64,000 nt of DNA from an uncultured Bryobacterales bacterium (GCA_937859895.1 CALMAV010000178.1:678-64677), one strand, 5' to 3'; numbered from the stretch's first letter, positions 28,322-48,166 are shown. Program-made: numbers and translations. The notes: generated by a model not told the origin, from the sequence alone.

Positions 28322-28680
28322 GACAGGGTGCGTTTTGGTGTCGGCACTGCGCTAACACTCGTCTCTGCGCCCTTGGCTTATGCCGCTCTTGTTACGATCG
28401 AAAGCGCCATTCTCGTCTTCGGTTTGGCGGCTATCGCGAGCAGGTCTTGTCGCGGGACCGTTGGTGCCGCCTCTGTCAGACCGACCGGCGATTAGCCGTT
28501 CACCATAGACGCCCTGGTCTCAATCGGGCTGCTTGGCAGATCACTGTTTGCCTGGGCTGTCATGCCCAGCTTCATCGCCGGCTTCGCTTGCCTCCCCAGC
28601 CCTCCCACCTCTTCCTTCTCTTGTGGCAGGAACAGCATCCTGGGTGGCCCGTTCAGTTGACTCTGCCCCTCGCGGCATGA
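28318..28680 (+). CDS. HNH-endonuclease-like zinc-finger protein (120 aa)
   Basis: CRHC...CRSC, then CRLCQTDRRLAVHHRRPG...VCLGCHAQLH (C-x2-C ... HH ... C-x2-C-H-x3-H pattern of HNH nucleases). ATGA overlaps on both sides. Confidence 0.6.
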   Translation: MRQGAFWCRHCANTRLCALGLCRSCYDRKRHSRLRFGGYREQVLSRDRWCRLCQTDRRLAVHHRRPGLNRAAWQITVCLGCHAQLHRRLRLPPQPSHLFLLLWQEQHPGWPVQLTLPLAA

Positions 28681-31670: not shown

Positions 31671-34600
31671 CTACCCTAACGAGAAAGGATTTATCAGCAC
31701 AGATGATTGGGCTGCAGCTTTTTGACCATGCAGGAGGATGTCGGTCATGACGAGTAAGAACCTAAATCCGGAAGATCCGGTTTCATTGTTCATGATTTTA
31801 CGTTCGGAATCACTGTTCTGAAATTGAGGCTCGATTCCGATCCATTTAGCAGAAGCGCGCTGGCGCGCATTGGGATAGTTCCAGACTTGAATCGGATAGC
31901 GCGGGCTTAAGTGGAGCGCCTCACGCCAGAGTGAGCGCCATCTTGAACGCTGACTTTTATCAAATGACACAAAGCGAGTCTGGTCCCGGCGAATTCCTAA
32001 TTGGTCCAAGAATGCAAGGTATTCCTGGGTATCCTCTGGAGCGTTCGGGTGCTCGAAGATCCGGAAGTTTTCTTCTAACCAGATGGACCGAACATACTCG
32101 CCGATAATTTTCTCCCCCAACTCAGGCTGTTGCTTGAGGAATACCGCAAGCTTGGGTGCCAGCACGTTCATCACGTTCTGATCGGCCTGCAGATGCGACT
32201 TGATTGGACAGCATAACCGCCGCTCGTCCGACAATGGTTGATGGGATAGTCCCCGGTTCGACAACCAAACAATCATTCTGTGACGGGGCCCCCTTCGCCG
32301 ACCCGAACGCAGATCGCGCAACTGACAAGCTCGCGCCAGCATGCCTTCGAGCTCCGCAATCGTAAACTCAAAGTCTGCCTGTAGTTGCCCTACTGGTGTT
32401 CCTGTTGTTTGGTGTAAATACAAAAAGTCCCAGGCTGCTTGTATTCGATCGATAGCGGCCGAAGCGTCTGGTTTGAGCTCTCGTGTGACTGCCCGCATGG
32501 CGGGGGGAGCTAGGCTTGGATATAGTTGCTGCACGAGATAGGCGGGACCGCCCCGCTGGAGCCAGCTGTAGGCTGTACTGGATGAATGGCCGCTGGCCAG
32601 AACTAACTGTCGCTGAGAGGGTGCCAAGGTGGGTGTTCCTGCCAGATAGGCCGGAAGAATCCAGTCAAGACAGTGAATGTAATGCTCCAGGCTGACTTGT
32701 GGACTCGAATGCCCTAGCAGCGCAGCAACGGCAAACCCGTGCTTTCGCGTGACATGCCCATGCTCGTAGAGCTTGGTCCTGAAGTCTCGGGCTGTTTTTA
32801 ACCAATCTGTTGTAGCAGGAAGATAAGAAAAACTTGGCGGAGTTGTAGGAAGGTCTGCCAAAAGCAGGCGCGCCAGGGTCCAGGTGCCGAAACTATGCCG
32901 AAGATGGTGAAAGCGTACACTCTGGTCTCCTGTCACCTCACGCATTGCCTGGTGAATGAGCGGAAAGAGAAGCCGCTCGGAAAGCACGTCCGCCGACAGT
33001 TCTGGGATGGAGAAAACAAAGGGTGGCTCTGACTCAATTCGATTGGCAACTCGCTCCTTCTTCCACTCGCGGAGCATCTCCAACTCCTCTTCGGTGAGTA
33101 AACTATCCAGGGGTAAACTGCGGGTGGCCGCTGGGGTTTTCAGGTCGCGAAACTCGGAGACACGGACCAGCAGGGTACCCGGACCCCGCAAGTGTAAGTC
33201 AGCTAGCTGCAGCATCAACACTTCCATCTGGCGCAATCCGCAACGAAAACCCAGGATCGTAATGAGCTTTGCAGCCCGCCTTAGTTTAGGGTGCACGCGC
33301 AAACGGTCTATCTGGCGCAAGATCTCCTGGAACTCGTCGAGACTAAAAATGTTTGCGTCCACCGGCACTAATCCGCCCCGAGTACCCAGCAGATCGCGAT
33401 CCTGCAGAGCACCCACCGAGTAACGTGTCATCAGAAACTCGTGGAAGCGACGCAAGTGGCGACATACCGCTTTTCGGACTCCAGACGATTGATTTAGGTC
33501 TAGGTTTTCGAATATCAGGGTGTACAACACTTCCAGCTCCGAGATGGTCATCCCTTTCGGATCTTGGCCGTCCAGCAGGCACCCAAAATGAACAGCAACG
33601 GATGAGGCATAAATTCGAGCTGTGCTCAGCTTAGTTGAGTGAATCGTAGTAGCGCCAGTCAGCAAAAATTCAGCGAATTCAATCATCCTTTGTCCTGCTG
33701 AAGAGTAAACAGAGCCTTGAGATTGCAGTTTATTCAGAAGTGTTCTTGCTTCTTCTTTGGTGGGTGCTCGGAGTGCCGCTCGCAGGGCGCGCAACCAGGG
33801 TGGCTCGACATCTGCACCAGCTTCGGACCCTGAACGACGGGAAGAGCTCGGGGGTGCCCTCTCCTGATGAGCCATTTGGGACGACAAAGCAAAAGGGTCG
33901 GTCGAATCTCCGTTGCTGCTTCGGATGCCGGCAAGCCGTTGGGTCACCTGCGGTTTCAGTGAATGAGAGACAATCCGGCGGGCCGCGTACGCGAGCAGAA
34001 CGGGGGGCAACTCTGTCGAGTAGGCGAGGACGGCGGTGGTCATCAATTTGTTTAAGTTTGGTGGGCGGTCTCCCCGAGCAAGGTTGGTCGAAGTGCGCAG
34101 CGCGCCGGCTACTTCTCGCCAGAGGATCCGTTTGATCAGTTTCCGCGACACCACCGGAGACGCTCCATCTTCCCCGCCCGTCTGACCCTGAAGCAATTGA
34201 CGGAAGGCTTGCTCGGGCAAGCGTGCGAGCAATGCAGCTGTGAGAGGATCGGGGAGCCAGCGCCGCTTTTCCATGTCGGCCTGACCGTTTTTGGCAAGCA
34301 AAAGATTGATTTGCAGTTGGCCATCGACTAGCCCTAAAGCATCTGGCGAAGCAGCCAGTGTCTCAACAAGTGCTACGAGGGTACTAGGATGGAGGAGCCC
34401 TCCATACAAGACCGCAGAGAGGACTACGGAAGGAATGTCTGAGTGTTTTTTACGTTGGCTTGCTTCGACCCATTCGTCTAGAAGTTCGCGCCATTTCCGC
34501 ACCCGCCTTTTAGCGCTGACAAAATCCTGATGAAAAAGATTCCGTGGTCGGCGTGGTAAGACCGGAATGCGCGGCACAAACAGCGGGCAGCCGAGCAGTT

Positions 34601-34895
34601 CCGCGGCCCGGGTTAACAACTTTCCGCAGATCCGTAAGGCATGCTGGAACACTCGATTGTGGCGGAGATGCAAGGCCGCTGATCGCTCGAGTTCAGCGAC
34701 TTCCTCGGCCGTCCAAGCCGACCAGACCTCACGACCCGATAGGAGGCGAGCTAAACGAAACCTCTTCCGCCGGAGCCACCGTTTGATGTCGTCTACCTTT
34801 GCCTGCTGCTTCTTAGTCAGGTCACCAAGAGTAAGCTCCCACAGCTGGGAGCTGGTGAGAGGCGTAGCTGGAGTTGGCAGCGAAATATTACTCAT
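31671..34895 (-). CDS. Giant tyrosine-recombinase-domain protein (1074 aa)
   Basis: The catalytic core sits mid-protein: ILGFRCGLRQMEVLML (Arg-I), LKTPAATRSLPL (Lys), VRFHHLRHSFGTW (H-x-x-R), LLGHSSPQVSLEHYIH (His/Tyr). The start is set at MSNISLP, where ATG 34895 overlaps the upstream stop (ATGA). The ORF-track start is 35006. Confidence 0.85.
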   Translation of the reverse strand: MSNISLPTPATPLTSSQLWELTLGDLTKKQQAKVDDIKRWLRRKRFRLARLLSGREVWSAWTAEEVAELERSAALHLRHNRVFQHALRICGKLLTRAAELLGCPLFVPRIPVLPRRPRNLFHQDFVSAKRRVRKWRELLDEWVEASQRKKHSDIPSVVLSAVLYGGLLHPSTLVALVETLAASPDALGLVDGQLQINLLLAKNGQADMEKRRWLPDPLTAALLARLPEQAFRQLLQGQTGGEDGASPVVSRKLIKRILWREVAGALRTSTNLARGDRPPNLNKLMTTAVLAYSTELPPVLLAYAARRIVSHSLKPQVTQRLAGIRSSNGDSTDPFALSSQMAHQERAPPSSSRRSGSEAGADVEPPWLRALRAALRAPTKEEARTLLNKLQSQGSVYSSAGQRMIEFAEFLLTGATTIHSTKLSTARIYASSVAVHFGCLLDGQDPKGMTISELEVLYTLIFENLDLNQSSGVRKAVCRHLRRFHEFLMTRYSVGALQDRDLLGTRGGLVPVDANIFSLDEFQEILRQIDRLRVHPKLRRAAKLITILGFRCGLRQMEVLMLQLADLHLRGPGTLLVRVSEFRDLKTPAATRSLPLDSLLTEEELEMLREWKKERVANRIESEPPFVFSIPELSADVLSERLLFPLIHQAMREVTGDQSVRFHHLRHSFGTWTLARLLLADLPTTPPSFSYLPATTDWLKTARDFRTKLYEHGHVTRKHGFAVAALLGHSSPQVSLEHYIHCLDWILPAYLAGTPTLAPSQRQLVLASGHSSSTAYSWLQRGGPAYLVQQLYPSLAPPAMRAVTRELKPDASAAIDRIQAAWDFLYLHQTTGTPVGQLQADFEFTIAELEGMLARACQLRDLRSGRRRGPRHRMIVWLSNRGLSHQPLSDERRLCCPIKSHLQADQNVMNVLAPKLAVFLKQQPELGEKIIGEYVRSIWLEENFRIFEHPNAPEDTQEYLAFLDQLGIRRDQTRFVSFDKSQRSRWRSLWREALHLSPRYPIQVWNYPNARQRASAKWIGIEPQFQNSDSERKIMNNETGSSGFRFLLVMTDILLHGQKAAAQSSVLINPFSLG

Positions 34896-37546
34896 GCGAG
34901 TCGACTTCGCACAGGACCAAACCCCAGCTCGGCGAGAAGGGGAACCAGGTAGTCCTTCAAACTCTGGCAGCACTCGCGATAGAGAAAACTGGAATACGTA
35001 CCCCACGGCTCTTCGCCTCGGTACCAGTGACCCATCCAGCTATCGATCACTTCGGGTGAACACTGCCGAGCCTGTAGCTCACTCCGTACAAAACGCCGAT
35101 GGACGTTGGCCGGAAACGGCAGGAACTCGTGCATTAGAGGCAAAATTGTACGAGGCCTCACGTCGACCGGTGTGCCATCCGGGCGCAGAAAAAAGCATGA
35201 CCGTTCCACCACGGGGCTGGCCGTTTTCGATCTCAGGGTAGTGCGAATGAACGCCAAGTGATCCTCATAGTGGCGCATCTGCCGGAGGGTTTGAGGAGGG
35301 ATCCAGAGCAGCCTGGTCTTGTACCCGGAGCGGTCTCCTTTATCCAGAATCTTGGTGTAGCCCGAATCGCCATCGACCTCCGACAGGCTCAGATAAGGCG
35401 TGACAATTCCTCGCATTCCGGTTGAATAGTTAAAGAACGCAATCGTGTATAAGGAGTAGTAATTATGGTAGGCTGCCCGGGTCTCTATGTCTGTGCGATC
35501 CACAGGCAAGGTACGAACCTTCTTGCGCAGAGCCTGATTCGCCCGCACTAAAGCTTCTTGGGTGGGACAGCGTCGGCTGCCGACATAACGCATGTCTGGA
35601 GGTGACCGAGCAACGATGGGAGGCGATACAAACTCTTCCGGTACTGGGCACGACAGGAGGCCACGCACAAGGGCGAGGGGTCTTGAGACGGCTTGACAGT
35701 AGGTGTCCCTCAACAACGACAAAGACGGGGTGTTGTAATAAGAGCGGACATGAGCCAGGGAATGGGTACGCGCAGTCAAAACAGACGCAAGTGCAACGTC
35801 TCCGCCTGTGGTAGCAATCACCCGCAAGAAAAGCCAGTTCGCGACTTTGGTTGTGGTCAGGCGACCGGTCGGGTCAAACTCGGATAGCAGTTTCTTCAGC
35901 CGTTCTCGATAGAGAGTCAGAGCCTGGGGAGACCCGCGGAAGACCTTGTTCCGTCGACTTGCTTCTTCTACAGCTTTCGTCCTCCTAGCTGCTCGAGCAG
36001 CTAGGAAGCGGTGAACGAAGTAGCTGCCACCGGTCTCATCCGGAAAGAACACGTAATTCTGAAGGACACGCTCGTCAGCATTCGGAAGATGCTGCTCGCT
36101 GGCGTATCGTACCCGCAAAGCACGCACACGCCAAAGAGGAGCAACCGGTAAAGACACACGGTCAGACGCTTGCGGAAGCAGCGCAAGATCGAACTCCTCT
36201 TCACTCCGCTCGGCCGACAAGATGCGGAGGTCCGATGCACGCTCCAACTCACTGCTGGTCCCCAGCATAGTATGTAGAAGAGCGATCGTCTCGAGGCGAT
36301 TGATCTCCGCTGTATTCCAGTCAGCAGGATTGGGGGGAAGCGTCTCGACATAACGCAAGGACTGTTCCAATAGCTCGGTCAGCTCATCGATGGTGAGCAC
36401 CTGAGGTGCCCACCTAAGTAACTGATTGGCCATGGCAACATGGGCTACCTGCGCCCGCGCGATTCTACTTCGTTCGCCCGGGTGTCGGCGCATTCTATCA
36501 GGATTAAGATTCTCTCTCTCTTCCTCTCCGGCAAATGGATCAACCAGGAAAAGATCCCCGGGGCGCTGATCTTCCCAAGGATGGTCGTCGACACTCAGCA
36601 GTCTTCTCCGGTTGTTCTTGCTGTGCCTTGTTCGACGGATCTCAAATGGCCTTCCCAATTGGTCATGGGGATCGTCCGGATCGCCTGCCAGCGGCCATTC
36701 TTGGACAGTGCCGCCCATACCGACATATCCTTTCAGCCACGGTTTGCCTCCTGTACCGGCGCCATGCGAACGACCCTTTCTCTGGCGGCGCCAGCCAAGT
36801 AGGTCAGCAGCCTTTCCTAGAAACTTGGCAAGGGCAGAATGGCGATTACGGACCTGCTTTGTGCCTTGCGGTTTCTGTTGCAAAATCTGCTCGGCGAATG
36901 CAGTAGGTAACAATTCGACACGATACGAACTAAAAAGCTTTTGCAGAGAAGCATTGCGTTCCTCGCTCAGCTGGCGAACAGCAAGGGCGGCCGAGTAAAT
37001 GGAGTTGGGCGAGCCGTTCCATTCACTGGCGCCTTCATGATTCTCATACGTGTCTCGATGGGAAAATTTTCGCAGTGTCAGGACTTGAGCTACTAGCAGG
37101 TGAGCCTGCAGCAAACGGTAGTTTTGTGCCTGGTGCCGATTTTGATGGCGGTTTAGCAGCACCGCGTACAACGGATATCGTACCGATCCTCGGCCAATTA
37201 CCGTGTTGTCGCCTGGGTCTTTCGGGCGCAGATCAAAAAGTCCGCCGATTGCTGCTCCCAGCTCTTCGCGACTGTCAATCACCCACTGCAGAATGGGTGG
37301 CCATTCCTCTAGGCCCCAGTCCGCCAGAGGTGTATTCCAGACTGTGGCTAGCGTTGACAGAATAGAGGCTAGATTCTCGCAGATCTGCGGAAACGATACT
37401 AACTGGTCATGAGCATTGATCAGCCAGAGCAGACTCCGTAAGTGATCGACAGAGCCGCCTGTTTGTGCAAATCGGCTCTTCAATTCCATGTGAGCTGGAC
37501 TTTTGAGTGGGGACAGTGTCGCCATTGTGCTCTTTCTTACATACAC
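34892..37546 (-). CDS. Giant tyrosine-recombinase-domain protein (884 aa)
   Basis: C-terminal catalytic core: FFNYSTGMRGIV (Arg-I), GYKTRLLWIP (Lys strand), NVHRRFVRSEL (H-x-x-R), WMGHWYRGEEPWGTYSSF (His/Trp plus Tyr). The roughly 600-aa N-terminal region has no recognisable motif. Confidence 0.8.
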   Translation of the reverse strand: MYVRKSTMATLSPLKSPAHMELKSRFAQTGGSVDHLRSLLWLINAHDQLVSFPQICENLASILSTLATVWNTPLADWGLEEWPPILQWVIDSREELGAAIGGLFDLRPKDPGDNTVIGRGSVRYPLYAVLLNRHQNRHQAQNYRLLQAHLLVAQVLTLRKFSHRDTYENHEGASEWNGSPNSIYSAALAVRQLSEERNASLQKLFSSYRVELLPTAFAEQILQQKPQGTKQVRNRHSALAKFLGKAADLLGWRRQRKGRSHGAGTGGKPWLKGYVGMGGTVQEWPLAGDPDDPHDQLGRPFEIRRTRHSKNNRRRLLSVDDHPWEDQRPGDLFLVDPFAGEEERENLNPDRMRRHPGERSRIARAQVAHVAMANQLLRWAPQVLTIDELTELLEQSLRYVETLPPNPADWNTAEINRLETIALLHTMLGTSSELERASDLRILSAERSEEEFDLALLPQASDRVSLPVAPLWRVRALRVRYASEQHLPNADERVLQNYVFFPDETGGSYFVHRFLAARAARRTKAVEEASRRNKVFRGSPQALTLYRERLKKLLSEFDPTGRLTTTKVANWLFLRVIATTGGDVALASVLTARTHSLAHVRSYYNTPSLSLLRDTYCQAVSRPLALVRGLLSCPVPEEFVSPPIVARSPPDMRYVGSRRCPTQEALVRANQALRKKVRTLPVDRTDIETRAAYHNYYSLYTIAFFNYSTGMRGIVTPYLSLSEVDGDSGYTKILDKGDRSGYKTRLLWIPPQTLRQMRHYEDHLAFIRTTLRSKTASPVVERSCFFLRPDGTPVDVRPRTILPLMHEFLPFPANVHRRFVRSELQARQCSPEVIDSWMGHWYRGEEPWGTYSSFLYRECCQSLKDYLVPLLAELGFGPVRSRLA

Positions 37547-38059: not shown

Positions 38060-38520
38060 CCTCCAGCACAATGGGTAAGAAGGCTCTTACAGCTTGCGAT
38101 TATGCGCATGACCTCAATTCCTTTGAGCGTGGTGTAAGCCATTCGCCAATTTGAGGCCGAGCATGGATCGGATACGGCGTTTAATGACGCCATGATCCGC
38201 TTCTATTGGGTTGTTCAGATACTTTTACTTGGCGGTGATCGACGAGTCGTTAATCAGCTTCGAGCTTTGGAGCTTGCGGATCGCTTCGCCGTACGCCGGA
38301 TTGCGATCTATGTTGATTACTGTGGGCTCCCAATCACGACGTACCCGGAGCGCCTTGGCCAAGAACCGTCGCGCTGCCCCGGCATTGCGACGCTGGAACA
38401 AGTAGAAGTCCACCGTGCCCGCGGCTATCAACGGCTCGAAACAGGTATAACCATTGCCCTCATACGCTGATGTACGTTTTGTCGATGCGCCCAGGAGGAA
38501 CTCGTATAATCAGGCGATTT
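38060..38520 (-). pseudogene. IS6-family transposase remnant (5'-truncated, in-frame stop and at least 3 frameshifts)
   Basis: Minus-strand pieces read GRIDKTYISV*GQWLYLFRAVDSRG / TVDFYLFQRRNAGAARRFLAKAL...NIDRNPAYGEAI / YLNNPIEADHGVIKRRIRSMLGLK / TTLKGIEVMRII. They are colinear with the IS6/IS26 DDE transposase consensus (W.VDETY..V.G.W.YL.RAVD, D.......Y, N..E..H...K.R, GIE.M.MI). Confidence 0.7.
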
Positions 38521-38540: not shown

Positions 38541-39110
38541 TTATCCAACCAGACGCTGATGTAGTTCTGAAAGCAATCGATCACGATTGATAACAGTGAC
38601 ACTTCCTTCAGGTGCATTGCTAAGGTAAACCACTAAATTCTTACCATGACCGGTGGCGGATCGAAACATAAGACTTTCTATGCCTTCACTAATCCAGCTG
38701 TCAGCCACTTGCTGAGATGCACTGTGATCGCCCGGCTGAGAACACGCTGTAATTACTGAATCTAAGTCGCTCGGCAGGCCGCCGGAGAGATCTAGGTGTT
38801 TGTCTGTTTTGATGTTCAAAGCATAGGTCATGCGAGGATATTCAAGGAAGTCTATTTCCGAGTTGCCTTTCAGCATCAGCTGCCTCGCCCTAACCTCCTG
38901 CACTGCTGTGGACTCGTCTACGCTTCCAAATACCGCTGATACGCCAATAGGGACGAAGCGACCGCCGTATCGTCGCGTCCCTTCACCACTGATCACGTCG
39001 TCTGGATGGAAGTACTGATACGCCACCGAGCGAAAGACTGTCGCTTCCAATGGTTGCGCGTGAGTTATACGATAGTCTAGTTGCTCACGAGCATCAAGAC
39101 TCAGGTTCAA
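38541..39110 (-). CDS. RES-domain toxin (189 aa)
   Basis: GTRRYGGRFVPIGVSAVFGSVDESTAVQEV is a typical RES-domain core. The upstream Xre-type antitoxin stop overlaps this gene's start by 4 nt. Confidence 0.8.
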   Translation of the reverse strand: MNLSLDAREQLDYRITHAQPLEATVFRSVAYQYFHPDDVISGEGTRRYGGRFVPIGVSAVFGSVDESTAVQEVRARQLMLKGNSEIDFLEYPRMTYALNIKTDKHLDLSGGLPSDLDSVITACSQPGDHSASQQVADSWISEGIESLMFRSATGHGKNLVVYLSNAPEGSVTVINRDRLLSELHQRLVG

Positions 39111-39793
39111 ATTGCATCACCTGCCTGAAGCCGCTGAAACTCGTGAATGATGTCCCTAGCCCTGCCATCCAGGATCAGATCTTTCGGGCGTTCACCACCG
39201 AAGGAAGCATTTTCTGAAACAAGCCACTGTGGAATCTGCGCTTCCGGGACAGAAGTTGAAAGCAGAAATGAGAGCTCCTCTAGATCACGTAATTGATGCC
39301 GCCCCCTTGCTATTCTCAGCTGCTCCCAGTTTTGAATGGTTCGGAGACTGACTCCTAAGGCCCGACCCATCTCAGTTTGTGTCAACCCAAGGCACGTCCG
39401 AATTCCGAGAAGGCGATTTTCTACGTCATTCCTGTGCCTGCCATGATGAGGAACCTGCAAGGCATGCAGTGCAGCAGTGGCCTCGAACACCAGCTCTGTA
39501 TGCCGCGGTCGAACTTCTCCTATGAGGCGGCCGAGGCGCGCAGCTTCTTCCAACGCCGTGTGATGCTGGGCGCAGTACACCACCACGTTTACAGTGCGTC
39601 GTAGCTCTTTGAGCAGAGAGGAAACGTCATCTTCGTCTGAGTGACCTACGTACACGAGAACTGAGTGAGCGGAAGCGTTCCGATCAACTCTATCGAATGT
39701 CCGGAGCTCGGCATGTTGAAGACATTTCTGCGCGAATTGGCCAGCTTCGGCCAAGTTCTGCTCATTCGAGTAGACAAGAATATCTTCGCCCAT
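39107..39793 (-). CDS. Xre/MbcA/ParS-type antitoxin with an extra ~120-aa N-terminal region (228 aa)
   Basis: HTH LGLTQTEMGRALGVSLRTIQNWEQ, then a DUF2384-like toxin-binding tail WLVSENASFGGERPKDLILDGRARDIIHEFQRLQAG. The N-terminal 120 aa are unassigned. Confidence 0.75.
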   Translation of the reverse strand: MGEDILVYSNEQNLAEAGQFAQKCLQHAELRTFDRVDRNASAHSVLVYVGHSDEDDVSSLLKELRRTVNVVVYCAQHHTALEEAARLGRLIGEVRPRHTELVFEATAALHALQVPHHGRHRNDVENRLLGIRTCLGLTQTEMGRALGVSLRTIQNWEQLRIARGRHQLRDLEELSFLLSTSVPEAQIPQWLVSENASFGGERPKDLILDGRARDIIHEFQRLQAGDAI

Positions 39794-39950
39794 ACTGCTA
39801 AAATAGCATAATTACATATGCAAAACTGCGTTCTGATAGCTTTGTTACTCCTCTCTCATATAGACCCGCAACACGTCTCTGAGTAGTTAGCGGCCCTATA
39901 TATAGTATTTACGAGATACAGCCACACATTATGGAGTAGGTCTAGTTCAG

Positions 39951-39956
39951 TATAAT
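39951..39956 (+). promoter_or_regulatory. Candidate -10 box (TATAAT) for the MBL / E2-E1-JAB operon
   Basis: cagTATAATgtca lies 19 nt upstream of ATG 39975, inside a 180-bp AT-rich divergent intergenic region. There is no convincing -35 box or SD, so the transcript would be near-leaderless. Confidence 0.3.
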
Positions 39957-39974
39957 GTCATCTGAGATACCTTT

Positions 39975-41108
39975 ATGCCGAGATTAACTTTTTACCCGCT
40001 CGGTAATGCCGATTGCTGCCTAGTTGGACTGGTAGACGGCACTCAAATCTTGTTCGATTACGCTGCTACGCGAGATTCGAACAATAAACAAGACAAACGG
40101 ATCGATTTAGCCGTCGAGCTAAGGCGCGATCTAAAGAAGGCCAAACGCGACAGTTTTCGTGCAGTGGTCTTTACTCACCTCGACAACGATCATGTGAAGG
40201 GTGCTCAAGATTTCTTTTTCTTAGACCATGCCGAGTGTTATCAGAAAGGCGATCGGTTCAAGATTGAAGAGCTCTGGGTACCCGCAGCAGCAATCATTGA
40301 GGAAGGGTGTGAAGATGACGCCCGGATCGTCCGCGCAGAAGCGCGACATCGTTTAAAGAAAGGGTACGGAATCCGAGTTTTCTCCCGGCCTGAGAAGTTA
40401 AAGATGTGGCTTGAGGATCAAGGCATACCGTTTGACTCTCGGAAACATCTTTTCGTTGATGCCGGCCAGCTGGTGCCATCGTTCAGCATCCCTACAGATG
40501 GAGTTGAGTTCTTCGTTCATTCACCGTTTGCATCCCGCCTTAACGACACAGAAGTAGTTGATAGAAATATCGATTCGATCTTTATTCAGGCTGTTTTCGC
40601 GGTCGAAGCGAAAACAACAAACGTCATTTTGGGGTCGGATCTCCCTTACGAGGCCCTAGCTGAAATAGTCAAGATTACGAAAGCAAGAGGGCGCGCGAGC
40701 CGGCTCGAGTGGGACGTATTCAAAATGCCGCACCACTGTAGCTATAAGTCAATCGGTCCAGATCGTGGAGCTGAGAAGGCAAAACCAACGGAAGAGACAA
40801 AGTGGCTGTTCGAAGAGCAAGCTCTTCCAGGTGCGATTTTGATTTCTACTAGCGACCTCATTCCGGCAAAGGGCTCCGAAGCAGACAAAGGGAAGCAGCC
40901 TCCACACCGACAGGCGTACAACTATCACAAAGGGCACATAGACGACAACTCCGGAGAGCTGCACGTAACGATGCAGCATCCGAAAATTACTGCACCCGAG
41001 CGACTGACCATTGAAATTGACAATACAAAAGCCCGAGTGGTGAAGGGCGGTTCGAGCGGGGTACAAATCATCACCTCGCAATCTGCTCCGCGCGCCGGAA
41101 CTATCTAG
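39975..41108 (+). CDS. Metallo-beta-lactamase-fold protein (377 aa), partner of the E2-E1-JAB fusion
   Basis: LTFYPLGNADCCLV (beta-strand plus Asp), VVFTHLDNDHVKGA (HxHxDH-like metal motif, here H-L-D-N-D-H), FFVHSP, ILGSDL and FKMPHHCSY (ComEC/MBL-like late His motif). The C-terminal tail is ...ARVVKGGSSGVQIITSQSAPRAGTI. Confidence 0.75.
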   Translation: MPRLTFYPLGNADCCLVGLVDGTQILFDYAATRDSNNKQDKRIDLAVELRRDLKKAKRDSFRAVVFTHLDNDHVKGAQDFFFLDHAECYQKGDRFKIEELWVPAAAIIEEGCEDDARIVRAEARHRLKKGYGIRVFSRPEKLKMWLEDQGIPFDSRKHLFVDAGQLVPSFSIPTDGVEFFVHSPFASRLNDTEVVDRNIDSIFIQAVFAVEAKTTNVILGSDLPYEALAEIVKITKARGRASRLEWDVFKMPHHCSYKSIGPDRGAEKAKPTEETKWLFEEQALPGAILISTSDLIPAKGSEADKGKQPPHRQAYNYHKGHIDDNSGELHVTMQHPKITAPERLTIEIDNTKARVVKGGSSGVQIITSQSAPRAGTI

Positions 41109-43335
41109 TGTTCCTTGAAATTCCTGGCGAACGGGTGCTTGCCGAAGCGCTCACGATTTCTAAAGCGGCAGATCTGGGCCAGTTCTTGCTGGCCCAAGTC
41201 AGCCCATACGCTCGCCTTGTGGACTGTTCTCACAAACTCCGGAGAACACCGAAACAGTCGTCGTAGATCTCGATGTTGAGGTTGGACAGCAGCCAATTCA
41301 CCCAATCCAAAAAACGGAACGTGTCGCGATTACATTCCGATCTGAAGACATTTCCTACCCTGAGATCGTTTCACTGCGGCCGGATTTCCCTAGTGTTCCT
41401 CATCTCAATCCCAAGGATGCAGAGTTTCCTCGCAGCCTATGTCTATTCGAAGAACCCTACTCTCAAGTCGGAATCTCCTGGACATCGGCACGGCTCATCC
41501 ACCGACTCCGAAGTTGGCTGCGTGAAACGGCCCGCGGCGCATTGCATCAACTCGATCAGCCTTTAGAGCCTATTCTCCTGCCCGGTTCGCGACATTTAAT
41601 TGTTCCTTCAGACCTCTTTTCCAACCTGGACGAACAGCCAGAACAATTGATCGTTGAACTCGTTACGTTTCCTCCACATGAAACCCTGATTACCAGGCGC
41701 ATAAATAATAATTCCGGGGAACAAGCATCGTCTGTTCCATTCGCCGCAATCACCTTCCGTTGTCCTCCTCAGACGCATGGCGTAGTCAGGCTACTTCCAA
41801 AAAATTTAGAGATACTGCACCAGCTAGTCCAAGCGAGCGGCCTGGACCTTATCCACTTCGTCCGAGACCGACTCCGAAATTGGAGTCCAAAAGCCTTACC
41901 GCGAGATGCTCGTCTTATCCTAATCGGTCATTTCCCCAAAATGCGTGATTCTACCTCTCACCCTGAGGTTTCGGACATTTGGGGATTTGTGACGTTGTCA
42001 ACGATCAAAGAGATCGGATGCGCTGTTGGTGCCTGGAGTGCTGATGGCAACTCGGTGGGTGCCCTTATTGGGGGTCAGGTTGATCTGGAGAAATCCCGAT
42101 CCGTTGAGATTCACGTTCTAAATGTTCACTTCGCATTGTCGCGCTCGCAAGCCGCTGAACTGAACGGTCTACAACCTGATGAGACTGCGATTGTTGCAAT
42201 CGGTCTAGGCGCACTAGGATCGCAAGTCGTTCCGAAGCTGATCCGATCTGGTTTCGGCCAGTGGCGATTCCTTGATGAAGATATAGTGCTTCCGCATAAT
42301 CTCGCACGATATGAGCTGTCAAGCCACGCTGTAGGACACCCAAAAGCTCTTGTGTGTCGCTCCGTCTTCAACCACATTTTAGAGAGACCAACCGTCGATG
42401 ATGCCCTAGTCGTGGACGTATTGCAATCTAAAGACAAGCACGAGCGGCTTCGGTCAATGCTGGCGGAATCTGAGCTTGTCGTAGATCTCTCAGCATCGGT
42501 CCCTGTTGCGCGTTCGTTAGCACGTGACTTTGATGCACCGGCGAGGAGAATCTCGGCCTTCTTAAACCCTTCCGGTAAAGATTTGGTTGTATTAGCCGAA
42601 GATGAGAAAAGGAACGTCCGCCTCGACTGGTTGGAAATGCAGTATTACCGGGAGTTGCTCTCGCGAACCGAATTCGCAGACCACCTGGTTGTCAATGAGG
42701 CCGGTGGACTGAGGTACGCACGAAGTTGCCGAGATCTCACGGCTCGAATCCCCGAAGACTTGGTCGGCTTACACTCAGCGATAGCGTCCAGAGCAATTCG
42801 GCAAGTAAAGGCCAAACCAGAGGCCGTACTTTGCTTTTGGAAGAGTCACTCCGACCTAAGTGTTGAATCTCTTCGAGTGGAAGGAAGCGCCGTTTTTGAG
42901 CAGCAACTAGGCAACTGGCTCCTTTGCACTGATTCCGTTTTGCTCGCAAAGCTCGCATCGCATCGTCTCGCCCGTCTCCCTAGAGAGACCGGCGGTGTGA
43001 TGATCGGCTCCCACGACTTTCAAAGACAGATCGTGTATGTGGTGGACTTGATTCCCTCGCCCCCAGACAGTGAAGAGTGGCCGACGCTTTACATTCGTGG
43101 GTACGAACAATTGGCAGACTACCTGGGCGAGGTAAGCGCGCGAACTGCGGGCATGCTTCACTATGTGGGCGAGTGGCATTCTCATCCGAACGGAAGCAGC
43201 ACTCAGCCCAGCCGTGATGACCGAAAGGTCTTCGCTTGGCTCGAAACGTATATGAAAAGTGATGGCTTGCCGCCGCTTATGGCCATCGTTGGCGACATCG
43301 ATGTTTCCTGGTATCTTGGGACGCTGAGTGGATAA
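41108..43335 (+). CDS. E2(UBC-like)-E1(ThiF-like)-JAB/MPN triple-domain protein, interrupted by a -1 frameshift near 41240
   Basis: GTG 41108 overlaps the MBL stop (TAGTG). Frame 2 gives MFLEIPGERVLAEALTISKAADLGQFLLAQVSPYARLVDCSHKL and stops at 41264-41266. Frame 1 is open from 41164 and gives ENTETVVVDLDVEVGQQPIHPIQKTERVAITFRSEDISYPEIVSLRPDFPSVPHLNPKDAEFPRSLCLFEEPY (E2-like, Cys codon 41440-41442). Next come IVAIGLGALGSQVV...FLDEDIVLPHNLARY (E1 Rossmann, 42190-42300). The JAB motifs are RETGGVMIG (Glu 42985-42987) and HSHPNGSSTQPSRDD (43177 onward). Total length is 2228 nt, which is 3n-1. Confidence 0.8.
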
Positions 43336-43346
43336 GCGAGTCGGCG

Positions 43347-44018
43347 CTAAGGTTTGGCAGAAGCCGTTACCTTAGCATCATCAACAGCATTCTCGGCGAC
43401 TTGCAAAATTTCTCGGACGTAATAAAACGCTCGTTGTCGGCATCGGTTCCAAAATAAGAGAAACATGGCCGTAACTGGAATTACCAGCAAAACCAATGTT
43501 GATTTTGGCCGAGTGGACAACGTTCCTACAAAAGCGGAGGCTTCGGTCACGAACAGCGCGATTAAAGAGAGAACAATCAGAGCTCGATGGTAGGCGTAGA
43601 GGGCGTTGAACTTCGTCGCCCGGATAGAACCTTTTTTCTCGGCAAGTTGCATTGCGAGACGGAACAGCGCTTCGGTACTTGCATCCGCACCAAGGTTGCT
43701 GGTCAGCTTCGCTCGAACTCTTTTGGCTTCCGCTGCCGACCAGTAACGTTCTCCCAGGCCATTCGTCAGAGCAAGCGTAGACGGCTTTCCACCCCAGCTT
43801 TTAAAAAGCAATGGCTCCAAAGAACTTGATAGAGCTTGAACAATTTGGCCGATCAAAATGCCGAGTGCGGTAAACGCAAGAGCATTCAGGGTGTCGCCCA
43901 TTTTCGGAACAAGAGATAGAACATTTGGGAAGCAGAAAACGCAAATGTACGTGACCAGGATGCCCGGAACCAAAATCGCCAGGACATCATACAATTCGAA
44001 CTTGTCAGTCATAGTCAA
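43347..44018 (-). CDS. Hypothetical integral membrane protein (223 aa, about 4-5 TM helices)
   Basis: Hydrophobic helices VLAILVPGILVTYICVFCF, LNALAFTALGILIGQIVQAL, ALIVLSLIALFVTEASAFVG and LVLLVIPVTAMFLLFW. It is convergent with the E2-E1-JAB gene, with an 11-nt gap. Confidence 0.6.
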   Translation of the reverse strand: MTMTDKFELYDVLAILVPGILVTYICVFCFPNVLSLVPKMGDTLNALAFTALGILIGQIVQALSSSLEPLLFKSWGGKPSTLALTNGLGERYWSAAEAKRVRAKLTSNLGADASTEALFRLAMQLAEKKGSIRATKFNALYAYHRALIVLSLIALFVTEASAFVGTLSTRPKSTLVLLVIPVTAMFLLFWNRCRQRAFYYVREILQVAENAVDDAKVTASAKP

Positions 44019-44488
44019 AGTTCCAGCTGAGTTCCTTACCCGGCCATGCTCATAGAGACGTACCCAAGGTCTAACACCTTATTGTCTCGACCTCGTCCAA
44101 CAAAATCTCACCGTTAAGGGCATTTGGACGTCTGAGCTTGGTAAACGGGGTGCCGGTATCTTAAACGACGTGGCTTTGACAGCATTTTGGTGACCGACAG
44201 TCTGGCTATGGAGCTGTTCCAGGCTGCTGATAGAGAGAAACTACTCTTCGTAAAAGGCCCGGACTTCCAGCCACCCATAGAGATCGCGCAACGCCGTGAC
44301 CTATCGTGCACTATCGCTTCTTGTGCTTTTTGACAAGGTGGTCATTCATAACCTATCCCCTTAACGGTCATCGGCGCGGCTGCTTCACACCGAGCCGAAA
44401 AGAGCAACGAATGCGTGCTGTTCGGATCATGAAGTGTGGGGCAAATCGCAGCGCAGATGAAGATACCCGAGTATTCCGGTGGCCCTTG

Positions 44489-45495
44489 CTAATAGGAGAT
44501 CCGCTCCACCTCGTCGAAGGAAATCTCATCCCCGCATCGGTTATAGAGCCCAGTGGTCCGGGAACTCTCGTGACCGGCCATTTGCTGGGCGACCTTGAGA
44601 CGGCCGCCATTCTGCAAATAATTCGTGATCCCCGTTGCCCGGAACTGTGACAACCGATCTTGGTTTGGATCCCTGCCTGCCGGCAGCGCCGCCGGATCAT
44701 TATGGACATTGGACTGGTTCAGGGGCCGGGCTGCAGTTGTCCCTGCCGCCAGGCACAGAACAATTGGAAGCTGCCCTTTCCTGCCAAGCCAGAGGCGGAG
44801 AGGTATTCCTCTAAATACTGCTCCAACGTGTGGTGACAAGGGATCTCCGACACCTTGCCGCCCTTCTCGCGCAGCCGAAGCCAGCCGCGGCGGCGCTGGA
44901 CGTAGTAGTCTTCGACTTCCAAGCTGAAGACTGTTCCAATCCGGGCAAAGGTGTAGGCTATGACACCGAGCAGGGCCCGATCGCGCAGGCGCAGGACCGT
45001 ATCTGTCGGAAGGCTGCCAGGAACTCGCCCATCTCTTCGCTCGAAAGCACCGGGGTCTTGCCCCGCTCGACGGTATGCTTCGGCCCGCGGACGGAGGCGG
45101 CCGGGTTGACTGGCAGGAACTGGCCGAGGATCATCCGGTCGAAGAGCATCGGGACGGCCGCCAGATGTTGCTTCACTATGAGCCGGGAGCGAGCCCGGCC
45201 GGAGTCCTGCACCCAAGCTGCCACAGGGATCGGCTCCACTAAGGTGAACTCCTCGATGCCGCGCCGCTGGCACCAGGCGGAGAACTGCCAGTCGGCGCCA
45301 TAACAACCGCGCCTGGTATTCGGGTTCGGGATCTGAGCGGTGAAGAACTCCCAAAGCGTTTGGCCGTTCGCGCATTTTGCAGGAAGAGGTGGGGCCGAGC
45401 CGTTCGACTTCCCTGTCCTCGACGTCCGGGGTAAATGCCGAGCCCGCGACCGCCGGAAGCGGGACGAGGGGACCAGGGTCAGGCGTGGACCTCAT
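44489..45495 (-). pseudogene. Frameshifted tyrosine integrase, paralog of 2112..3080
   Basis: Three minus-strand frames are colinear with the intact paralog. First: WEFFTAQIPNPNTRRGCYGADWQFSAWCQRRGI...VKQHLAAVPMLFDRMILGQFLPVNPAASVRGPKH...PVLSSEEMGEFL. Second: LRLRDRALLGVIAYTFARIGTVFSLEVEDYY...REKGGKVSEIPCHHTLEQYLEEYL. Third: FRATGITNYLQNGGRLKVAQQMAGHESSRTTGLYNR. There are at least two frameshifts. Confidence 0.8.
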
Positions 45496-45581
45496 ACCTG
45501 AAAACGTCTACTATCATCATCTATCACTGAGCTGTTCTTGGTGGAAGCAGGACCGTCTTATGACACCTTGCAAAGCAAAGC

Positions 45582-46673
45582 TTACAATCCCAATTTTCCG
45601 ATCGCGTGGTTGCGGAGCACATTGGCATCGCGGATGTAGCGGCGTAGGATGGGGAGGCTTTTGTGCCCGCTCTGTTCGGCAATGGAGCGTTCGTCGGCGC
45701 CCGCTTCGGCCGCCGCGGTACAAAAGCCGGCGCGCAGGCTATGACCTGAGAACCCAAGAAGTTCCCGGCTTTCGAGCCGGTCGTGCGCCATCGCTACCCC
45801 GAGCCACTGTTTGACGGCGCGCGCCACGGCTTTATCGGACAACGGCAGAGTTGTCGGTTTCCCGCGCCGGCCCACTTGCCGAAACACGGGACCGGTGAGC
45901 GGCAGACCGTAGCGGCGCAACCAGTGCCGCCAGGTTTTCAGAGCGGTGACCGGACAGAGTTCGGGATGGGCCTGGGCCGGCAAGAAGCCTTTCCAAAAAC
46001 CTTCGCCTTCCTGGTCCGATTTCGAGCGAGGGACCAGAATCGCGAGCCCCTCGTCCCGCCACTCGAGATGCTCCCACCCGATGGCCACCAGTTCTGAGCG
46101 GCGAAAGGCGCCGGCAAATCCTAAGAGCAGCAGCGCCCGGTCGCGTACCCCAATTGCGGTCTCCGGCAAGGAGCCGATCATGGCCCCGATCTCGCGCACC
46201 CGCACCGGTTTCTTCTCGCGCGTAGGCCGCCGCCCTTTGGCGCGCAGAACTCCTTTCAGGGTTTCCCGCACGGCGAGCGAGCGGGTGGGCGAATCGAGTC
46301 CGGACGCCTCGTGCACCTGGCTGATGGCAGCCATGCGGCGCTGCAGTGTCGCCGCCGACAAGATCTGGGCCCGGTCGGCCAGGTAGCCGCGCACCGTATC
46401 GGAGTGGGTGGGAAAAGCCCGGCGCCGATGCGTCTGGCACCAGAGGAGAAAATCAGCCCAGTCCGCCTGGTAGGCCTTCCAGGTCGCCGCCGACTTAGAT
46501 TGCTGGAGGAATTCTTGCACTCGCGCTTCGACCGCAGGCGGAAGCGGGGCTTCGTCGGCCCCCAGTTCCGCTGGAAGAACCAGGGGCACGGGAGTGCCTT
46601 CAACCAAATCTTTGGTGCTTGAACGACCCAAGTCGATCGGTTCTGGGGAAGCAACGGCGTCCGGAAGAGCCAT
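45582..46673 (-). CDS. Tyrosine recombinase / site-specific integrase (363 aa)
   Basis: N-terminal SAM-like segment TWKAYQADWADFLLWC. Catalytic motifs: VRDRALLLLGFAGAFRRSEL (Arg-I), ILVPRSKSDQEG (Lys), GHSLRAGFCTAAA (H-x-x-R), SGHKSLPILRRYIR (His/Tyr). Confidence 0.9.
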   Translation of the reverse strand: MALPDAVASPEPIDLGRSSTKDLVEGTPVPLVLPAELGADEAPLPPAVEARVQEFLQQSKSAATWKAYQADWADFLLWCQTHRRRAFPTHSDTVRGYLADRAQILSAATLQRRMAAISQVHEASGLDSPTRSLAVRETLKGVLRAKGRRPTREKKPVRVREIGAMIGSLPETAIGVRDRALLLLGFAGAFRRSELVAIGWEHLEWRDEGLAILVPRSKSDQEGEGFWKGFLPAQAHPELCPVTALKTWRHWLRRYGLPLTGPVFRQVGRRGKPTTLPLSDKAVARAVKQWLGVAMAHDRLESRELLGFSGHSLRAGFCTAAAEAGADERSIAEQSGHKSLPILRRYIRDANVLRNHAIGKLGL

Positions 46674-46685
46674 AGGGGAAGGCTA

Positions 46686-46718
46686 ACATGTCCGATAAGC
46701 TTTCCTTATCGGACGTGT
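46686..46718. promoter_or_regulatory. Inverted repeat upstream of the 45582..46673 integrase; candidate recombinase-binding site or operator
   Basis: ACATGTCCGATAAG-ctttc-CTTATCGGACGTGT has 14-bp arms with 1 mismatch (the inner 10 bp are perfect). It lies 13-45 bp upstream of the start codon. Confidence 0.4.
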
Positions 46719-46853
46719 CCCGACAACCCTTCGCCAACACGCAGCCGTTCGCCCTATACTGAGGGTTTAGCTGCTCGGAATACGCTGAGACGCCTGTAGG
46801 AAGGCTTTCCGGGACCTCTGCAGGGGTTTAAAGCTCTGAGCCAGGGGAGACAC

Positions 46854-47366
46854 GTGGCAGGTCGGAAACAATGGTTAGACCGGCTCGGGGGAGTGGGCGA
46901 GAAGCTCGCGGCACTTCCGCCAGACTTATCCCTAGACCGAGAACTGCTGGAGAAGTTGCTGGGCGTGCCGGGACGCACCGCCCTCCGCATCCTGGTTGAG
47001 CTCGGCGCGACTAAGGACGAGAGTGGACGCTTGGTCTTATCGCAGTCGGCCTTTCGCCAGGCCCTGGACTCGCCGGATATCCGGGAAAGCGTGGAGGCGC
47101 GTCAGGCTCGACGGCACGGCACCGAGGATTTGCTGGCTTTACAGAGCCGGTTTCGGCGCGGATACAACCACCGGTTTCCCTTGGTGGAAAACCAGGAACG
47201 CTGGTCCCTCGATGCGTTACCCGAAGCGATTGAGCTGACTCCGGGCCGGTTGAGCATCGAGTTTGCCGATCTGCCGGATTTGCTTTGGCAGCTGGAAGTG
47301 CTGGTGGCTACCCTCATTGACGATCGAAGCACAGCCGAAGCCCGGGTAGGCGAAGGAGGGACTTGA
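46854..47366 (+). CDS. Hypothetical protein (170 aa), possible winged helix
   Basis: The ORF's stop overlaps the start of the ScpA-like gene (TTGA). The segment LLEKLLGVPGRTALRILVELGATKDESGRLVL looks wHTH-like. Confidence 0.5.
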   Translation: MAGRKQWLDRLGGVGEKLAALPPDLSLDRELLEKLLGVPGRTALRILVELGATKDESGRLVLSQSAFRQALDSPDIRESVEARQARRHGTEDLLALQSRFRRGYNHRFPLVENQERWSLDALPEAIELTPGRLSIEFADLPDLLWQLEVLVATLIDDRSTAEARVGEGGT

Positions 47367-48166
47367 AGCATCCCTTGCCTGTCCCTCGAACGGCTGCCCG
47401 CCTGCCGCTTTGTCTGACCGGCGAAGAAGGATTCGAAGGACCTTTGGACGCGCTGCTCGCGTTGCTCGACGGACAGCCGGATCGGATCCTCCAGGTCCCG
47501 GTGGCCGAGCTCACCGAGCAGTATCTGGCCTGGCTGGAAAGCGCTCAGGACCGGGGATTGGCTGAGCAGGTGGAGTTCGTAGAGACAGCTGTGTCCCTCA
47601 TCCGGCTCAAGACGGAGGTGTTGCTGCAGCAATGGGGATGTACGGAGGAGGAGCAAGCAGCGCCCGAAAGCGCCTTGGCCAACAGGGAGAAAGACCCCCG
47701 CGAAGATCTCCGGCGGCAATTGCAGGCGCATCAGGAGCAACTGGTACGCTGGCGCGATTCGCTACAGGAGGCGGCCCGAGAACTCGGGAGTGGGTTCTTC
47801 GGGGGCGCCGCTTCCCTCCCCCGCGGGCGGGATCTGCAAGCTGAGGAGAAGCGACAGGCTACTGCCACGGAGCTGCTAGTCCGGATCCGGGAGGCCCGAC
47901 GTCTTTATGCTAAGCGCTTCCCCGGAATCGAGATCGAGCACGAGCCGCTGACCGAGGCGCGCCTAGCCGACTGGCTGGGGGAGCAGCTGGAAGAGCGGGG
48001 AGAGCCAGTAGACTTTGAAACCCTGCTGGAGGCGCAGGAGCTGCCGGGGGAGGGGTGCCTGTTGTTCTTGGCTTTATTACAAGGCTGCAAGGCTGCAAAG
48101 TGGACGGTCCGGCAAGCGGAAGCTTTTGGGGTAATTCAGGTTGATCTCCGTACTCTCAGCAGCTAG
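47363..48166 (+). CDS. ScpA-like (segregation and condensation protein A / kleisin) protein (267 aa)
   Basis: GFEGPLDALLALLDGQPDRILQVPVAELTEQYLAWL...QVEFVETAVSLIRLKTEVLL matches the ScpA N-terminal consensus (F.GPLDLLL.LI.....DI..I.I..IT.QYL.Y.....EFL.MAA.L...KS..LL). The C-terminal winged helix is less clear. Confidence 0.6.
   Translation: MKHPLPVPRTAARLPLCLTGEEGFEGPLDALLALLDGQPDRILQVPVAELTEQYLAWLESAQDRGLAEQVEFVETAVSLIRLKTEVLLQQWGCTEEEQAAPESALANREKDPREDLRRQLQAHQEQLVRWRDSLQEAARELGSGFFGGAASLPRGRDLQAEEKRQATATELLVRIREARRLYAKRFPGIEIEHEPLTEARLADWLGEQLEERGEPVDFETLLEAQELPGEGCLLFLALLQGCKAAKWTVRQAEAFGVIQVDLRTLSS

Follow-up and report, generated by a model that had tools for sequence, protein, structure and literature searches.

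What does a metallo-beta-lactamase (MBL) fold enzyme do directly beside a gene for ubiquitin-like conjugation, and does the pair still work? This question is raised by positions 39,975 to 43,335 of a stretch of 64,000 nucleotides from an uncultured Bryobacterales bacterium (GCA_937859895.1 CALMAV010000178.1:678-64677), which as a whole is called the window in the following. Two genes are located there on the plus strand, the first encoding the MBL protein and the second encoding E2, E1 and JAB domains. A preliminary description made from the DNA presented them as a working operon of an uncharacterised system, in which the conjugation domains would act on the MBL protein. The comparison with relatives suggests that the locus is probably a decayed copy of the defence system 6A-MBL and that in this system the C-terminal tail of the MBL protein is conjugated by the E1 and E2 domains. 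The two genes are:

39975-41108, plus strand: gene 1, MBL-fold binuclear-metal hydrolase of 377 amino acids (aa), ComEC/Pce-like phosphodiesterase clade (open reading frame (ORF), PADLOC, AlphaFold2, Foldseek)
41108-43335, plus strand: gene 2, E2-E1-JAB, i.e., a Cap2-like E2-linker-E1 and a Cap3-like JAB, probable two-frame pseudogene (translations, Pfam, homologues)

Assignment of the operon to a known class

The kind of operon found in the window is not new, as the class was already defined in 2006 and a defence role has been reported since. The operon type "6a" goes back to Iyer, Burroughs and Aravind 2006 (PMC1779556), who described it as "usually two genes", and the window operon fits their row 6a. 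Based on its architecture and on this definition the locus would be a member of 6A-MBL: a specialised MBL gene is located directly upstream of one gene encoding E2, E1 and JAB in that order, neither a ubiquitin-like protein (Ubl) nor a nucleotidyltransferase is encoded, and the operon resides on mobile elements. One study counts '6A-MBL' with the known jumbo-phage defences and takes its anti-phage activity in Pseudomonas aeruginosa as experimentally confirmed (10.1101/2025.09.30.679545). A review lists 6A-MBL as a confirmed anti-phage system, citing van den Berg et al. 2024 (PMC13276650), and a further article places it among the E2-E1 conjugation pathways together with type II CBASS (anti-phage signaling based on cyclic oligonucleotides) and Pycsar, using the words 'respective signaling enzymes' for the CBASS, Pycsar and MBL pathways (PMC11601596). 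Since the operon corresponds to type 6a/6A-MBL, a phage defence according to these citing texts, its interpretation as an uncharacterised system is outdated. For the window locus an anti-phage function would follow by analogy from the literature on the P. aeruginosa homologue.

The window copy differs from 6A-MBL in a frameshift that detaches the E2 domain, in a convergent gene for a protein with four transmembrane (TM) segments, compared with the 'usually two genes' of 2006, and in a RES-Xre pair upstream in place of a CapP-like or WYL regulator. By itself the window find matters little, since it adds a further, damaged copy to an operon class known since 2006. The comparison offers experimental handles, namely an invariant C-terminal Gly that is specific for E1-linked MBLs and carries optional extensions, TM and patatin neighbours that are mutually exclusive, and upstream CapP-like or WYL regulators; moreover, two-gene reconstructions may miss a component.

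Among the matches listed, more than 1,500 homologues of the E2-E1-JAB fusion protein and more than 4,000 homologues of the MBL protein were found. Relatives are present in at least 485 species-representative genomes from Acidobacteriota, Planctomycetota, Chloroflexota, Bacteroidota, Verrucomicrobiota, Cyanobacteria, Patescibacteria and others, and 31 of 5,426 complete Escherichia coli genomes contain a homologue. Comparison of 81 loci from about 20 phyla, designated by L numbers in the following, revealed the MBL gene directly upstream of the fusion gene on the same strand in 79, the remaining two being cut at the fusion gene; the adjacency, for which the preliminary description had asked for a check, is thus conserved. 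A PDB copy searched with both proteins contained no solved structure of a 6A-MBL protein.

The MBL protein

Gene 1 was recognised as an MBL-fold protein by its motifs, which were located at 40002-40016 (GNADC), 40176-40193 (HLDNDH) and 40728-40742 (PHHCS). The Pfam Lactamase_B match is weak and under the cut-off (E=0.0046). The PADLOC MBL models RTasMBL (2.7e-12), LmuA (8.9e-11) and Avs1a (6.2e-07) match, and the protein shares homology with the MBL modules in the Lamassu, Avs1 and DRT models of PADLOC. Its AlphaFold2 model, with 37 homologues, has a predicted local distance difference test score (pLDDT) of 89.6 and a predicted template modelling score of 0.90. A Foldseek search of this model against the PDB resulted in the MBL domain of ComEC as best match (9ic4, E=8e-13), and Pce, the pneumococcal phosphorylcholine esterase, was also found (2bib/1wra); both ComEC and Pce belong to the phosphodiesterase/nuclease branch of the MBL fold. 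By PADLOC models and predicted structure the MBL assignment is firm, in agreement with what the motifs had suggested. Gene 1 most likely encodes a metal-dependent phosphodiesterase of the ComEC/Pce type, and this enzyme would most likely act as a nuclease.

The residues N11, D13, H68, D70, D72, H73, H182, D222, H253 and H254 are invariant in the 37 homologues, and HxDxDH is retained in 70 of 73 MBL homologues. All MBL metal-binding motifs and family-invariant residues are kept in the window protein. The gene ends with TAG at 41106-41108 and shares the last base of this stop codon with a GTG at 41108, confirming the TAGTG junction with its overlap of one base.

The E2, E1 and JAB domains

The following domains and catalytic residues were assigned in gene 2:

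41233-41616, plus strand: E2/UBC-like domain (Prok-E2_A, Pfam E=9.7e-24), without in-frame start codon
41401-41403 and 41440-41442, plus strand: E2 catalytic His and Cys (H99 and C112, invariant in the fusion alignment)
42184-42738, plus strand: E1/ThiF adenylation domain (Pfam ThiF E=6.6e-10, invariant columns)
42202-42222 and 42727-42729, plus strand: E1 Gly-rich ATP loop GLGALGS and crossover-loop Cys (SCRDL)
42940-43296, plus strand: JAB/MPN metalloprotease domain (Pfam Prok-JAB E=9.2e-15)
42985-42987, from 43177, and 43216-43218, plus strand: JAB Glu, HSH and Asp (invariant E627, H691, S692, H693, D704, D705)

The Prok-E2_A, ThiF and Prok-JAB matches are all above the curated cut-offs of Pfam. 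Furthermore, the PADLOC CBASS models 'E1-E2' and 'JAB' match gene 2, the JAB models with E-values down to 1e-20. Homologous fusion proteins have a length of 740-760 aa, and the best PDB sequence matches of the E1 region and of the fusion are Cap2. This is supported by the model of an intact relative, P0002 (pLDDT 81.8), for which full-length Cap2 is the best fold match (7to3_A, E=3.5e-23, 637 aligned columns), followed as weaker matches by Atg7 and then BubCD. Profiles and structure therefore bear out the three domain assignments. The order E2, E1, JAB is as first described; the single polypeptide does not hold for the window, in which a frameshift of one nucleotide divides the ORF. The family-invariant catalytic residues of E2, E1 and JAB are all kept in the window gene.

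The C-terminal tail of the MBL protein as putative substrate

41049-41105, plus strand: disordered MBL C-terminal tail, residues 359-377 (pLDDT, invariance, motif survey)
41088-41099, plus strand: tail motif P-R-A-G, followed at 41100-41105 by the two-residue extension T-I; putative E1 adenylation and JAB processing site

The last 19 residues of the MBL protein (359-377) have a pLDDT below 50 in the AlphaFold2 model and are predicted to be disordered. The last Gly, G375, is invariant in the MBL alignment, and a motif xR[AVM]G is present inside the last 14 residues in all 120 of 120 metagenomic MBL homologues; 65 of these end exactly with the Gly, the others contain one to six unconserved residues beyond it. 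MBL proteins with a ThiF/JAB partner in three other lineages have the tail RPMG plus two residues. As controls, 22 paralogous MBLs of the same loci, none of them paired with an E1, are without an xRxG ending, and the same applies to an MBL of the type of the PADLOC candidate PDC-M48 that is encoded within a type I restriction-modification (R-M) operon and has no E1 partner.

A C-terminal Gly that is either bare or covered by a few removable residues, and that occurs only in E1/JAB-partnered MBLs, is the signature of a ubiquitin-like substrate. The CD-NTase (cGAS/DncV-like nucleotidyltransferase) tail, which is adenylated by Cap2 and cleaved by Cap3, has the same signature (10.1101/2022.03.31.486616). 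The earlier proposal that the MBL C-terminus would be the substrate of E1 and E2 and would be trimmed by the JAB domain hereby gains strong comparative support, as the invariant G375, the motif in 120 of 120 homologues, the disordered tail, the absence of the motif in E1-less paralogues and the Cap2-like fold all point to it; the individual steps, i.e., adenylation and conjugation of the MBL protein and trimming by JAB, we infer.

For a partner search in 79 loci, ORFs encoding 60 aa or more were all clustered if they were located no further than 3 kb from the pair. The recurrent neighbour families were TM proteins, Peptidase_M78/CapP-like proteins, patatins and second MBLs only. Pfam and PADLOC revealed no CD-NTase among the window neighbours, and no nucleotidyltransferase cluster was obtained from the 79 loci. 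No beta-grasp or Ubl cluster was found in these loci, and none between the window genes, although a very divergent Ubl could escape BLAST clustering. The lack of CD-NTase and Ubl genes, as originally reported for the window, therefore extends to the homologous pairs, and a hidden CD-NTase or Ubl partner was rejected because the clustering resulted in neither.

A third gene beside the pair

43347-44018, minus strand: putative third component, protein of 223 aa with four TM segments, in convergent orientation to gene 2, whose stop is 11 bp away (PADLOC, hidden Markov model (HMM), neighbourhoods)

The MBL protein had been regarded as the only partner of the conjugation domains, a view that is contradicted by the convergent membrane protein, as this belongs to a family recurring beside such pairs. 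An HMM built from TM flankers of about 240 aa from 33 other loci, with the window protein left out, matches it with E=6.8e-31; its PADLOC matches are Csx27 (6.4e-9) and, weakly, PDC-M48A (0.007). In those 33 loci the TM gene is usually located directly down- or upstream on the same strand with gaps of -46 to +176 bp, and several TM genes overlap their neighbour by 4 or 8 bp. The inverted orientation of the window is common to L001, L031 and L060. Four of four looked-up homologues of the window TM protein adjoin an MBL gene, three of them also with ThiF/JAB genes and one without. In other loci the same slot is occupied by different small multi-TM proteins, including true PDC-M48A (E=1e-61); in several loci the fusion gene is directly followed downstream by true PDC-M48A/B pairs (1e-61 / 1e-44), and one such TM family is also present beside a WYL regulator on E. 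coli IncF plasmids. The frequency of small multi-TM ORFs is 7-fold higher up to 1.5 kb from the pair than more than 3.5 kb away (p=6e-11). A Pfam scan assigned no significant family to the TM families.

A TM protein (40 loci) or a patatin-like phospholipase (18 loci) accompanies the pair in 58 of 78 loci, both together in none of the 78 (p=1.6e-7), and 20 of the 78 have neither within 1.5 kb. Because 58 of 78 relatives carry one of the two, 6A-MBL would usually be a three-part system comprising the MBL protein, the fusion protein and a TM protein or patatin. Going by homology, the TM protein encoded at 43347-44018 very likely belongs to the system. It looks like the TM and MBL proteins form the core partnership, over which E2-E1-JAB acts as a regulatory layer.

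Some loci show deviating arrangements. L087 (5001-6480) and L088 (3567-5046) encode a homologue of the window TM protein and an MBL of 282 aa between hsdS and hsdR of a type I R-M operon, and this PDC-M48-like pair has no E1, E2 or JAB gene. In L084 (1157-5127) genes for a TM protein and an MBL (tail RPMG-AN) are followed by genes encoding proteins of 235 aa, 168 aa and 344 aa, the latter a ThiF protein, which may be a split E2/JAB/E1 module. L085 and L089 encode proteins of 777-804 aa in which ThiF and JAB are fused and no Prok-E2_A match is recognisable.

Relation to known systems

With type II CBASS the operon shares a Cap2-like E2-E1 and a Cap3-like JAB, as seen in the best fold match 7to3_A and in the PADLOC CBASS models, a substrate with a disordered C-terminal tail ending in Gly, a JAB peptidase as putative trimmer and eraser, and the presence of patatin or TM genes and CapP-like or WYL regulators nearby. 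In contrast to type II CBASS, the substrate would be an MBL hydrolase and not a nucleotidyltransferase, the JAB domain is part of the same protein as E2-E1, neither the window nor the 79 loci revealed a CD-NTase, and no cyclic-nucleotide sensor domain was seen in the neighbours. The PADLOC candidate PDC-M48, a small protein with four TM segments and an MBL, resembles the locus in the pairing of a TM protein with an MBL; however, it is without the E2-E1-JAB gene and its MBL is without the xRxG tail. The window MBL matches other PADLOC MBL models, not PDC-M48B, and the match of the window TM protein to PDC-M48A is the weak one given above. Literature searches resulted in nothing on PDC-M48 and in nothing that joins a lactamase with Cap2 and Cap3. 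The Bil/Bub systems have the E1, E2 and JAB chemistry and a phage-defence role in common with the operon, and BubCD is among the weaker fold matches. They differ by a dedicated Ubl and by separate E1 and E2 proteins, whereas a beta-grasp gene was neither found in the window nor recurrent in the relatives.

Proposed mechanism and distribution of roles

In the proposed mechanism the MBL protein would be a phosphodiesterase of the ComEC/Pce type with a flexible tail of about 19 residues ending in x-R-A-G. Residues beyond the Gly, here T-I, would be trimmed off by the JAB domain, and the exposed Gly375 would be adenylated by the E1 domain. The tail would be transferred as a thioester from the crossover-loop Cys of E1 (SCRDL) to the Cys of E2 (SLCL), and the E2-held tail would be ligated to some acceptor, whereby the MBL protein would be primed or activated as Cap2 primes cGAS in type II CBASS. 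The JAB domain might also undo the conjugation. For the small membrane protein (here 43347-44018), elsewhere replaced by a patatin phospholipase, we infer a role as partner, anchor or second effector.

Several observations weigh against this picture of the locus. The TM gene of the window is on the opposite strand, unlike in most relatives, and its operon membership is argued by homology and position only. The frequent TM or patatin neighbour also fits an MBL protein that is not the killing effector. Finally, an indel of a single base could in principle be an assembly error.

The alternative that survives best, which we regard as possible though doubtful, exchanges the roles. The overlooked third gene, encoding members of small four-TM families or a patatin and swapped like a CBASS effector, would be the true killer or an obligatory partner, and the MBL protein would be the E1/E2-primed upstream enzyme, a counterpart of cGAS in the place of a CD-NTase or Pycsar cyclase that makes or processes a signal or senses infection. 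Type II CBASS and Pycsar have the corresponding gene order (enzyme, E2-E1(-JAB), patatin or TM protein), TM and patatin genes occupy the same slot and never occur together, many third genes overlap the stop codon of the fusion gene by 4-8 bp, CapP-like or WYL regulators are located upstream as in CBASS, and the phrase 'respective signaling enzymes' in PMC11601596 would suit this distribution of roles. However, 20 of 78 loci have neither a TM protein nor a patatin within 1.5 kb, and the MBL protein is homologous to MBL-fold proteins matched by the PADLOC LmuA, Avs1a and RTasMBL models and resembles a nuclease domain in structure. Moreover, the TM proteins have no recognisable ligand-binding domain, and TM-MBL pairs without any E1, of the PDC-M48-like kind, suggest a direct TM-MBL partnership and not signalling. 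We prefer the reading in which the MBL phosphodiesterase is activated by conjugation of its tail, with the TM protein or patatin beside it.

The lesion in gene 2 and the remaining alternatives

41228-41237, plus strand: site of a one-nucleotide deletion at about codon 42 of gene 2, alignment gap between 41230 and 41231 (DNA alignment versus L001, protein comparison versus P0002)

In its title and hypothesis the preliminary description treated the operon as a working unit and only hinted at a frameshift; gene 2 is split by a deletion of one nucleotide. The frame starting from GTG at 41108 stops at 41266. The E2-E1-JAB frame is open from 41164 to 43335, and its first ATG, GTG or TTG is the TTG at 41542, past the E2 domain. 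The nearest relative, P0002 on contig L001, is an intact fusion of 742 aa with 83% identity, and the DNA alignment versus L001 shows exactly one base missing in the window. Public gene calls contain only an ORF of 597 aa from TTG 41542, present on two contigs (81,481 bp and 80,782 bp) with a one-residue difference between their MBL genes. No interruption was seen in the other long genes of the window, which encode up to 1,193 aa. We consider it highly probable that the deletion is real. As the E2 domain is thereby no longer translated, the cascade would most likely not operate, and the window copy is probably inactive. The lesion would be recent, because the downstream catalytic residues are all intact.

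That the frameshift is an artefact of assembly or sequencing and the operon is intact and functional in the organism appears unlikely. In its favour are the location of the single-base difference beside a short A run (cacaaac, around 41231-41237), the intact catalytic residues downstream and the full-length MBL and TM genes. However, the truncated product of 597 aa is encoded on two contigs that differ in the MBL gene, and long genes of up to 1,193 aa are unbroken, showing that the assembly is not indel-ridden. The element contains other decayed genes, namely the IS6 relic and a split integrase, and the nearest relative is without most of the TM gene, which together with the other decay points to relaxed selection in this lineage.

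In L001 the fusion gene is intact and the TM gene (4235-4453, minus strand) is reduced to its final 64 codons. The two known members of this sub-lineage have thus each lost a different component: in L001 the TM gene, in the window the fusion gene, which is frameshifted beside an intact TM gene.

Decidedly improbable is the view that the module serves the mobile element, i.e., in plasmid or integrative and conjugative element (ICE) competition, in addiction or in entry and establishment, and is not primarily directed against phages. It would be in line with the surroundings of the locus, comprising five tyrosine-recombinase genes or fragments, ParA, RepA and RES-Xre, with 257 plasmid records that contain a homologue, 132 of them conjugative, with the location near ardA and umuD on an E. 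coli IncF plasmid, and with the JGI annotation of many homologues as 'integrative and conjugative element protein TIGR02256'. However, defence systems typically ride such elements, a CapP-like or WYL regulator is characteristic of operons for defence, and viral carriage amounts to just 10 matches among 2.9 million viral contigs. 6A-MBL was reportedly validated in P. aeruginosa in the work of van den Berg et al. 2024, according to papers that cite it; the citing papers report confirmed anti-phage activity.

The weakest alternative, a programmed -1 ribosomal frameshift that would set the dosage of E2-E1-JAB, agrees with the needed shift being -1 and early in the gene, and was rejected as extremely improbable because the site lacks a slippery heptamer of the form X XXY YYZ and because the gene is one continuous ORF in the relative with 83% identity and in more than 100 further homologues.

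Mobile-element setting

The further features of the window are:

3089-4711, plus strand: protein of 540 aa with N-terminal SIR2_2 (Pfam 5.4e-25; PADLOC ThsA-type SIR2 3.2e-35) and C-terminal DUF4145/HEPN
28533-29627: tyrosine recombinase
31671-35006, minus strand: tyrosine-recombinase-like ORF of 1,111 aa, Phage_integrase domain mid-protein
34892-37546, minus strand: overlapping ORF of 884 aa, C-terminus recombinase-like by eye
38225-38431, minus strand: IS6-family transposase fragment of 68 aa (DDE_Tnp_IS240, 1.7e-9), between the large recombinase and the RES gene
38541-39793, minus strand: RES toxin (189 aa, Pfam 7.6e-19) and Xre-type antitoxin (228 aa) with a 4-bp overlap, divergent from the MBL gene (Pfam)
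44489-45495, minus strand: split tyrosine recombinase, overlapping ORFs for a 258-aa N-terminal and a 116-aa C-terminal catalytic part
45582-46673, minus strand: intact integrase of 363 aa
48605-49003: 165-bp unit repeated 2.4 times (84% match), iteron-like
49689-50405: ParA/VirC1-type ATPase
50868-52373: Replication initiator protein A (RPA) homologue

The recombinases, ParA, RPA and the RES match agree with the mobile-element setting described initially, and the IS6 relic mentioned there corresponds to the 68-aa fragment. The repeats, ParA and RPA are a plasmid-like replication and partition module. The whole suggests a plasmid- or ICE-like element that has become integrated. A plasmid may have integrated in this region, or the contig could be a plasmid in its own right. 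The split recombinase at 44489-45495 looks like another frameshifted gene. It is located together with the integrase in a block with a GC content of 0.63 over about 45000-48000 compared with 0.51 in the flanks, suggesting a nested insertion. The window contains no tRNA gene that could be an integration site, att-like flanking repeats are limited to weak pairs at chance level, and a promoter and terminator scan of 39000-44700 resulted in sites no more frequent than in shuffles. For the 884-aa ORF at 34892-37546 no Pfam or PADLOC match was obtained; this protein and the one of 1,111 aa are unusually long for tyrosine-recombinase-like proteins.

The RES-Xre pair occupies the slot of the CapP-like or WYL regulators in relatives, and the Xre gene is kept there in L001 (E=2.6e-129). 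A CapP-like M78 peptidase is encoded upstream in 30 of 79 relatives, and a WYL protein is encoded there on plasmids. Both CapP-like M78 peptidases and WYL proteins are regulator types known from CBASS. The Xre antitoxin has a helix-turn-helix at about residues 123-175 and C-terminally a weak MbcA/ParS domain; its N-terminal extension of about 120 aa is unusual. On the E. coli plasmid pKMi029_1 (L082, 2204-3590) an operon of a WYL gene and a gene for a TM protein of 172 aa is divergent from the MBL/E2-E1-JAB pair. In the enterobacterial IncF loci with WYL and TM genes the MBL tail is PRAG-VINQ, and umuD, a gene of an SOS-response peptidase, and ardA are nearby. Finally, the SIR2_2 gene at 3089-4711 adjoins an integrase at 2112-3080 and looks like a second, separate defence-type gene of the window.

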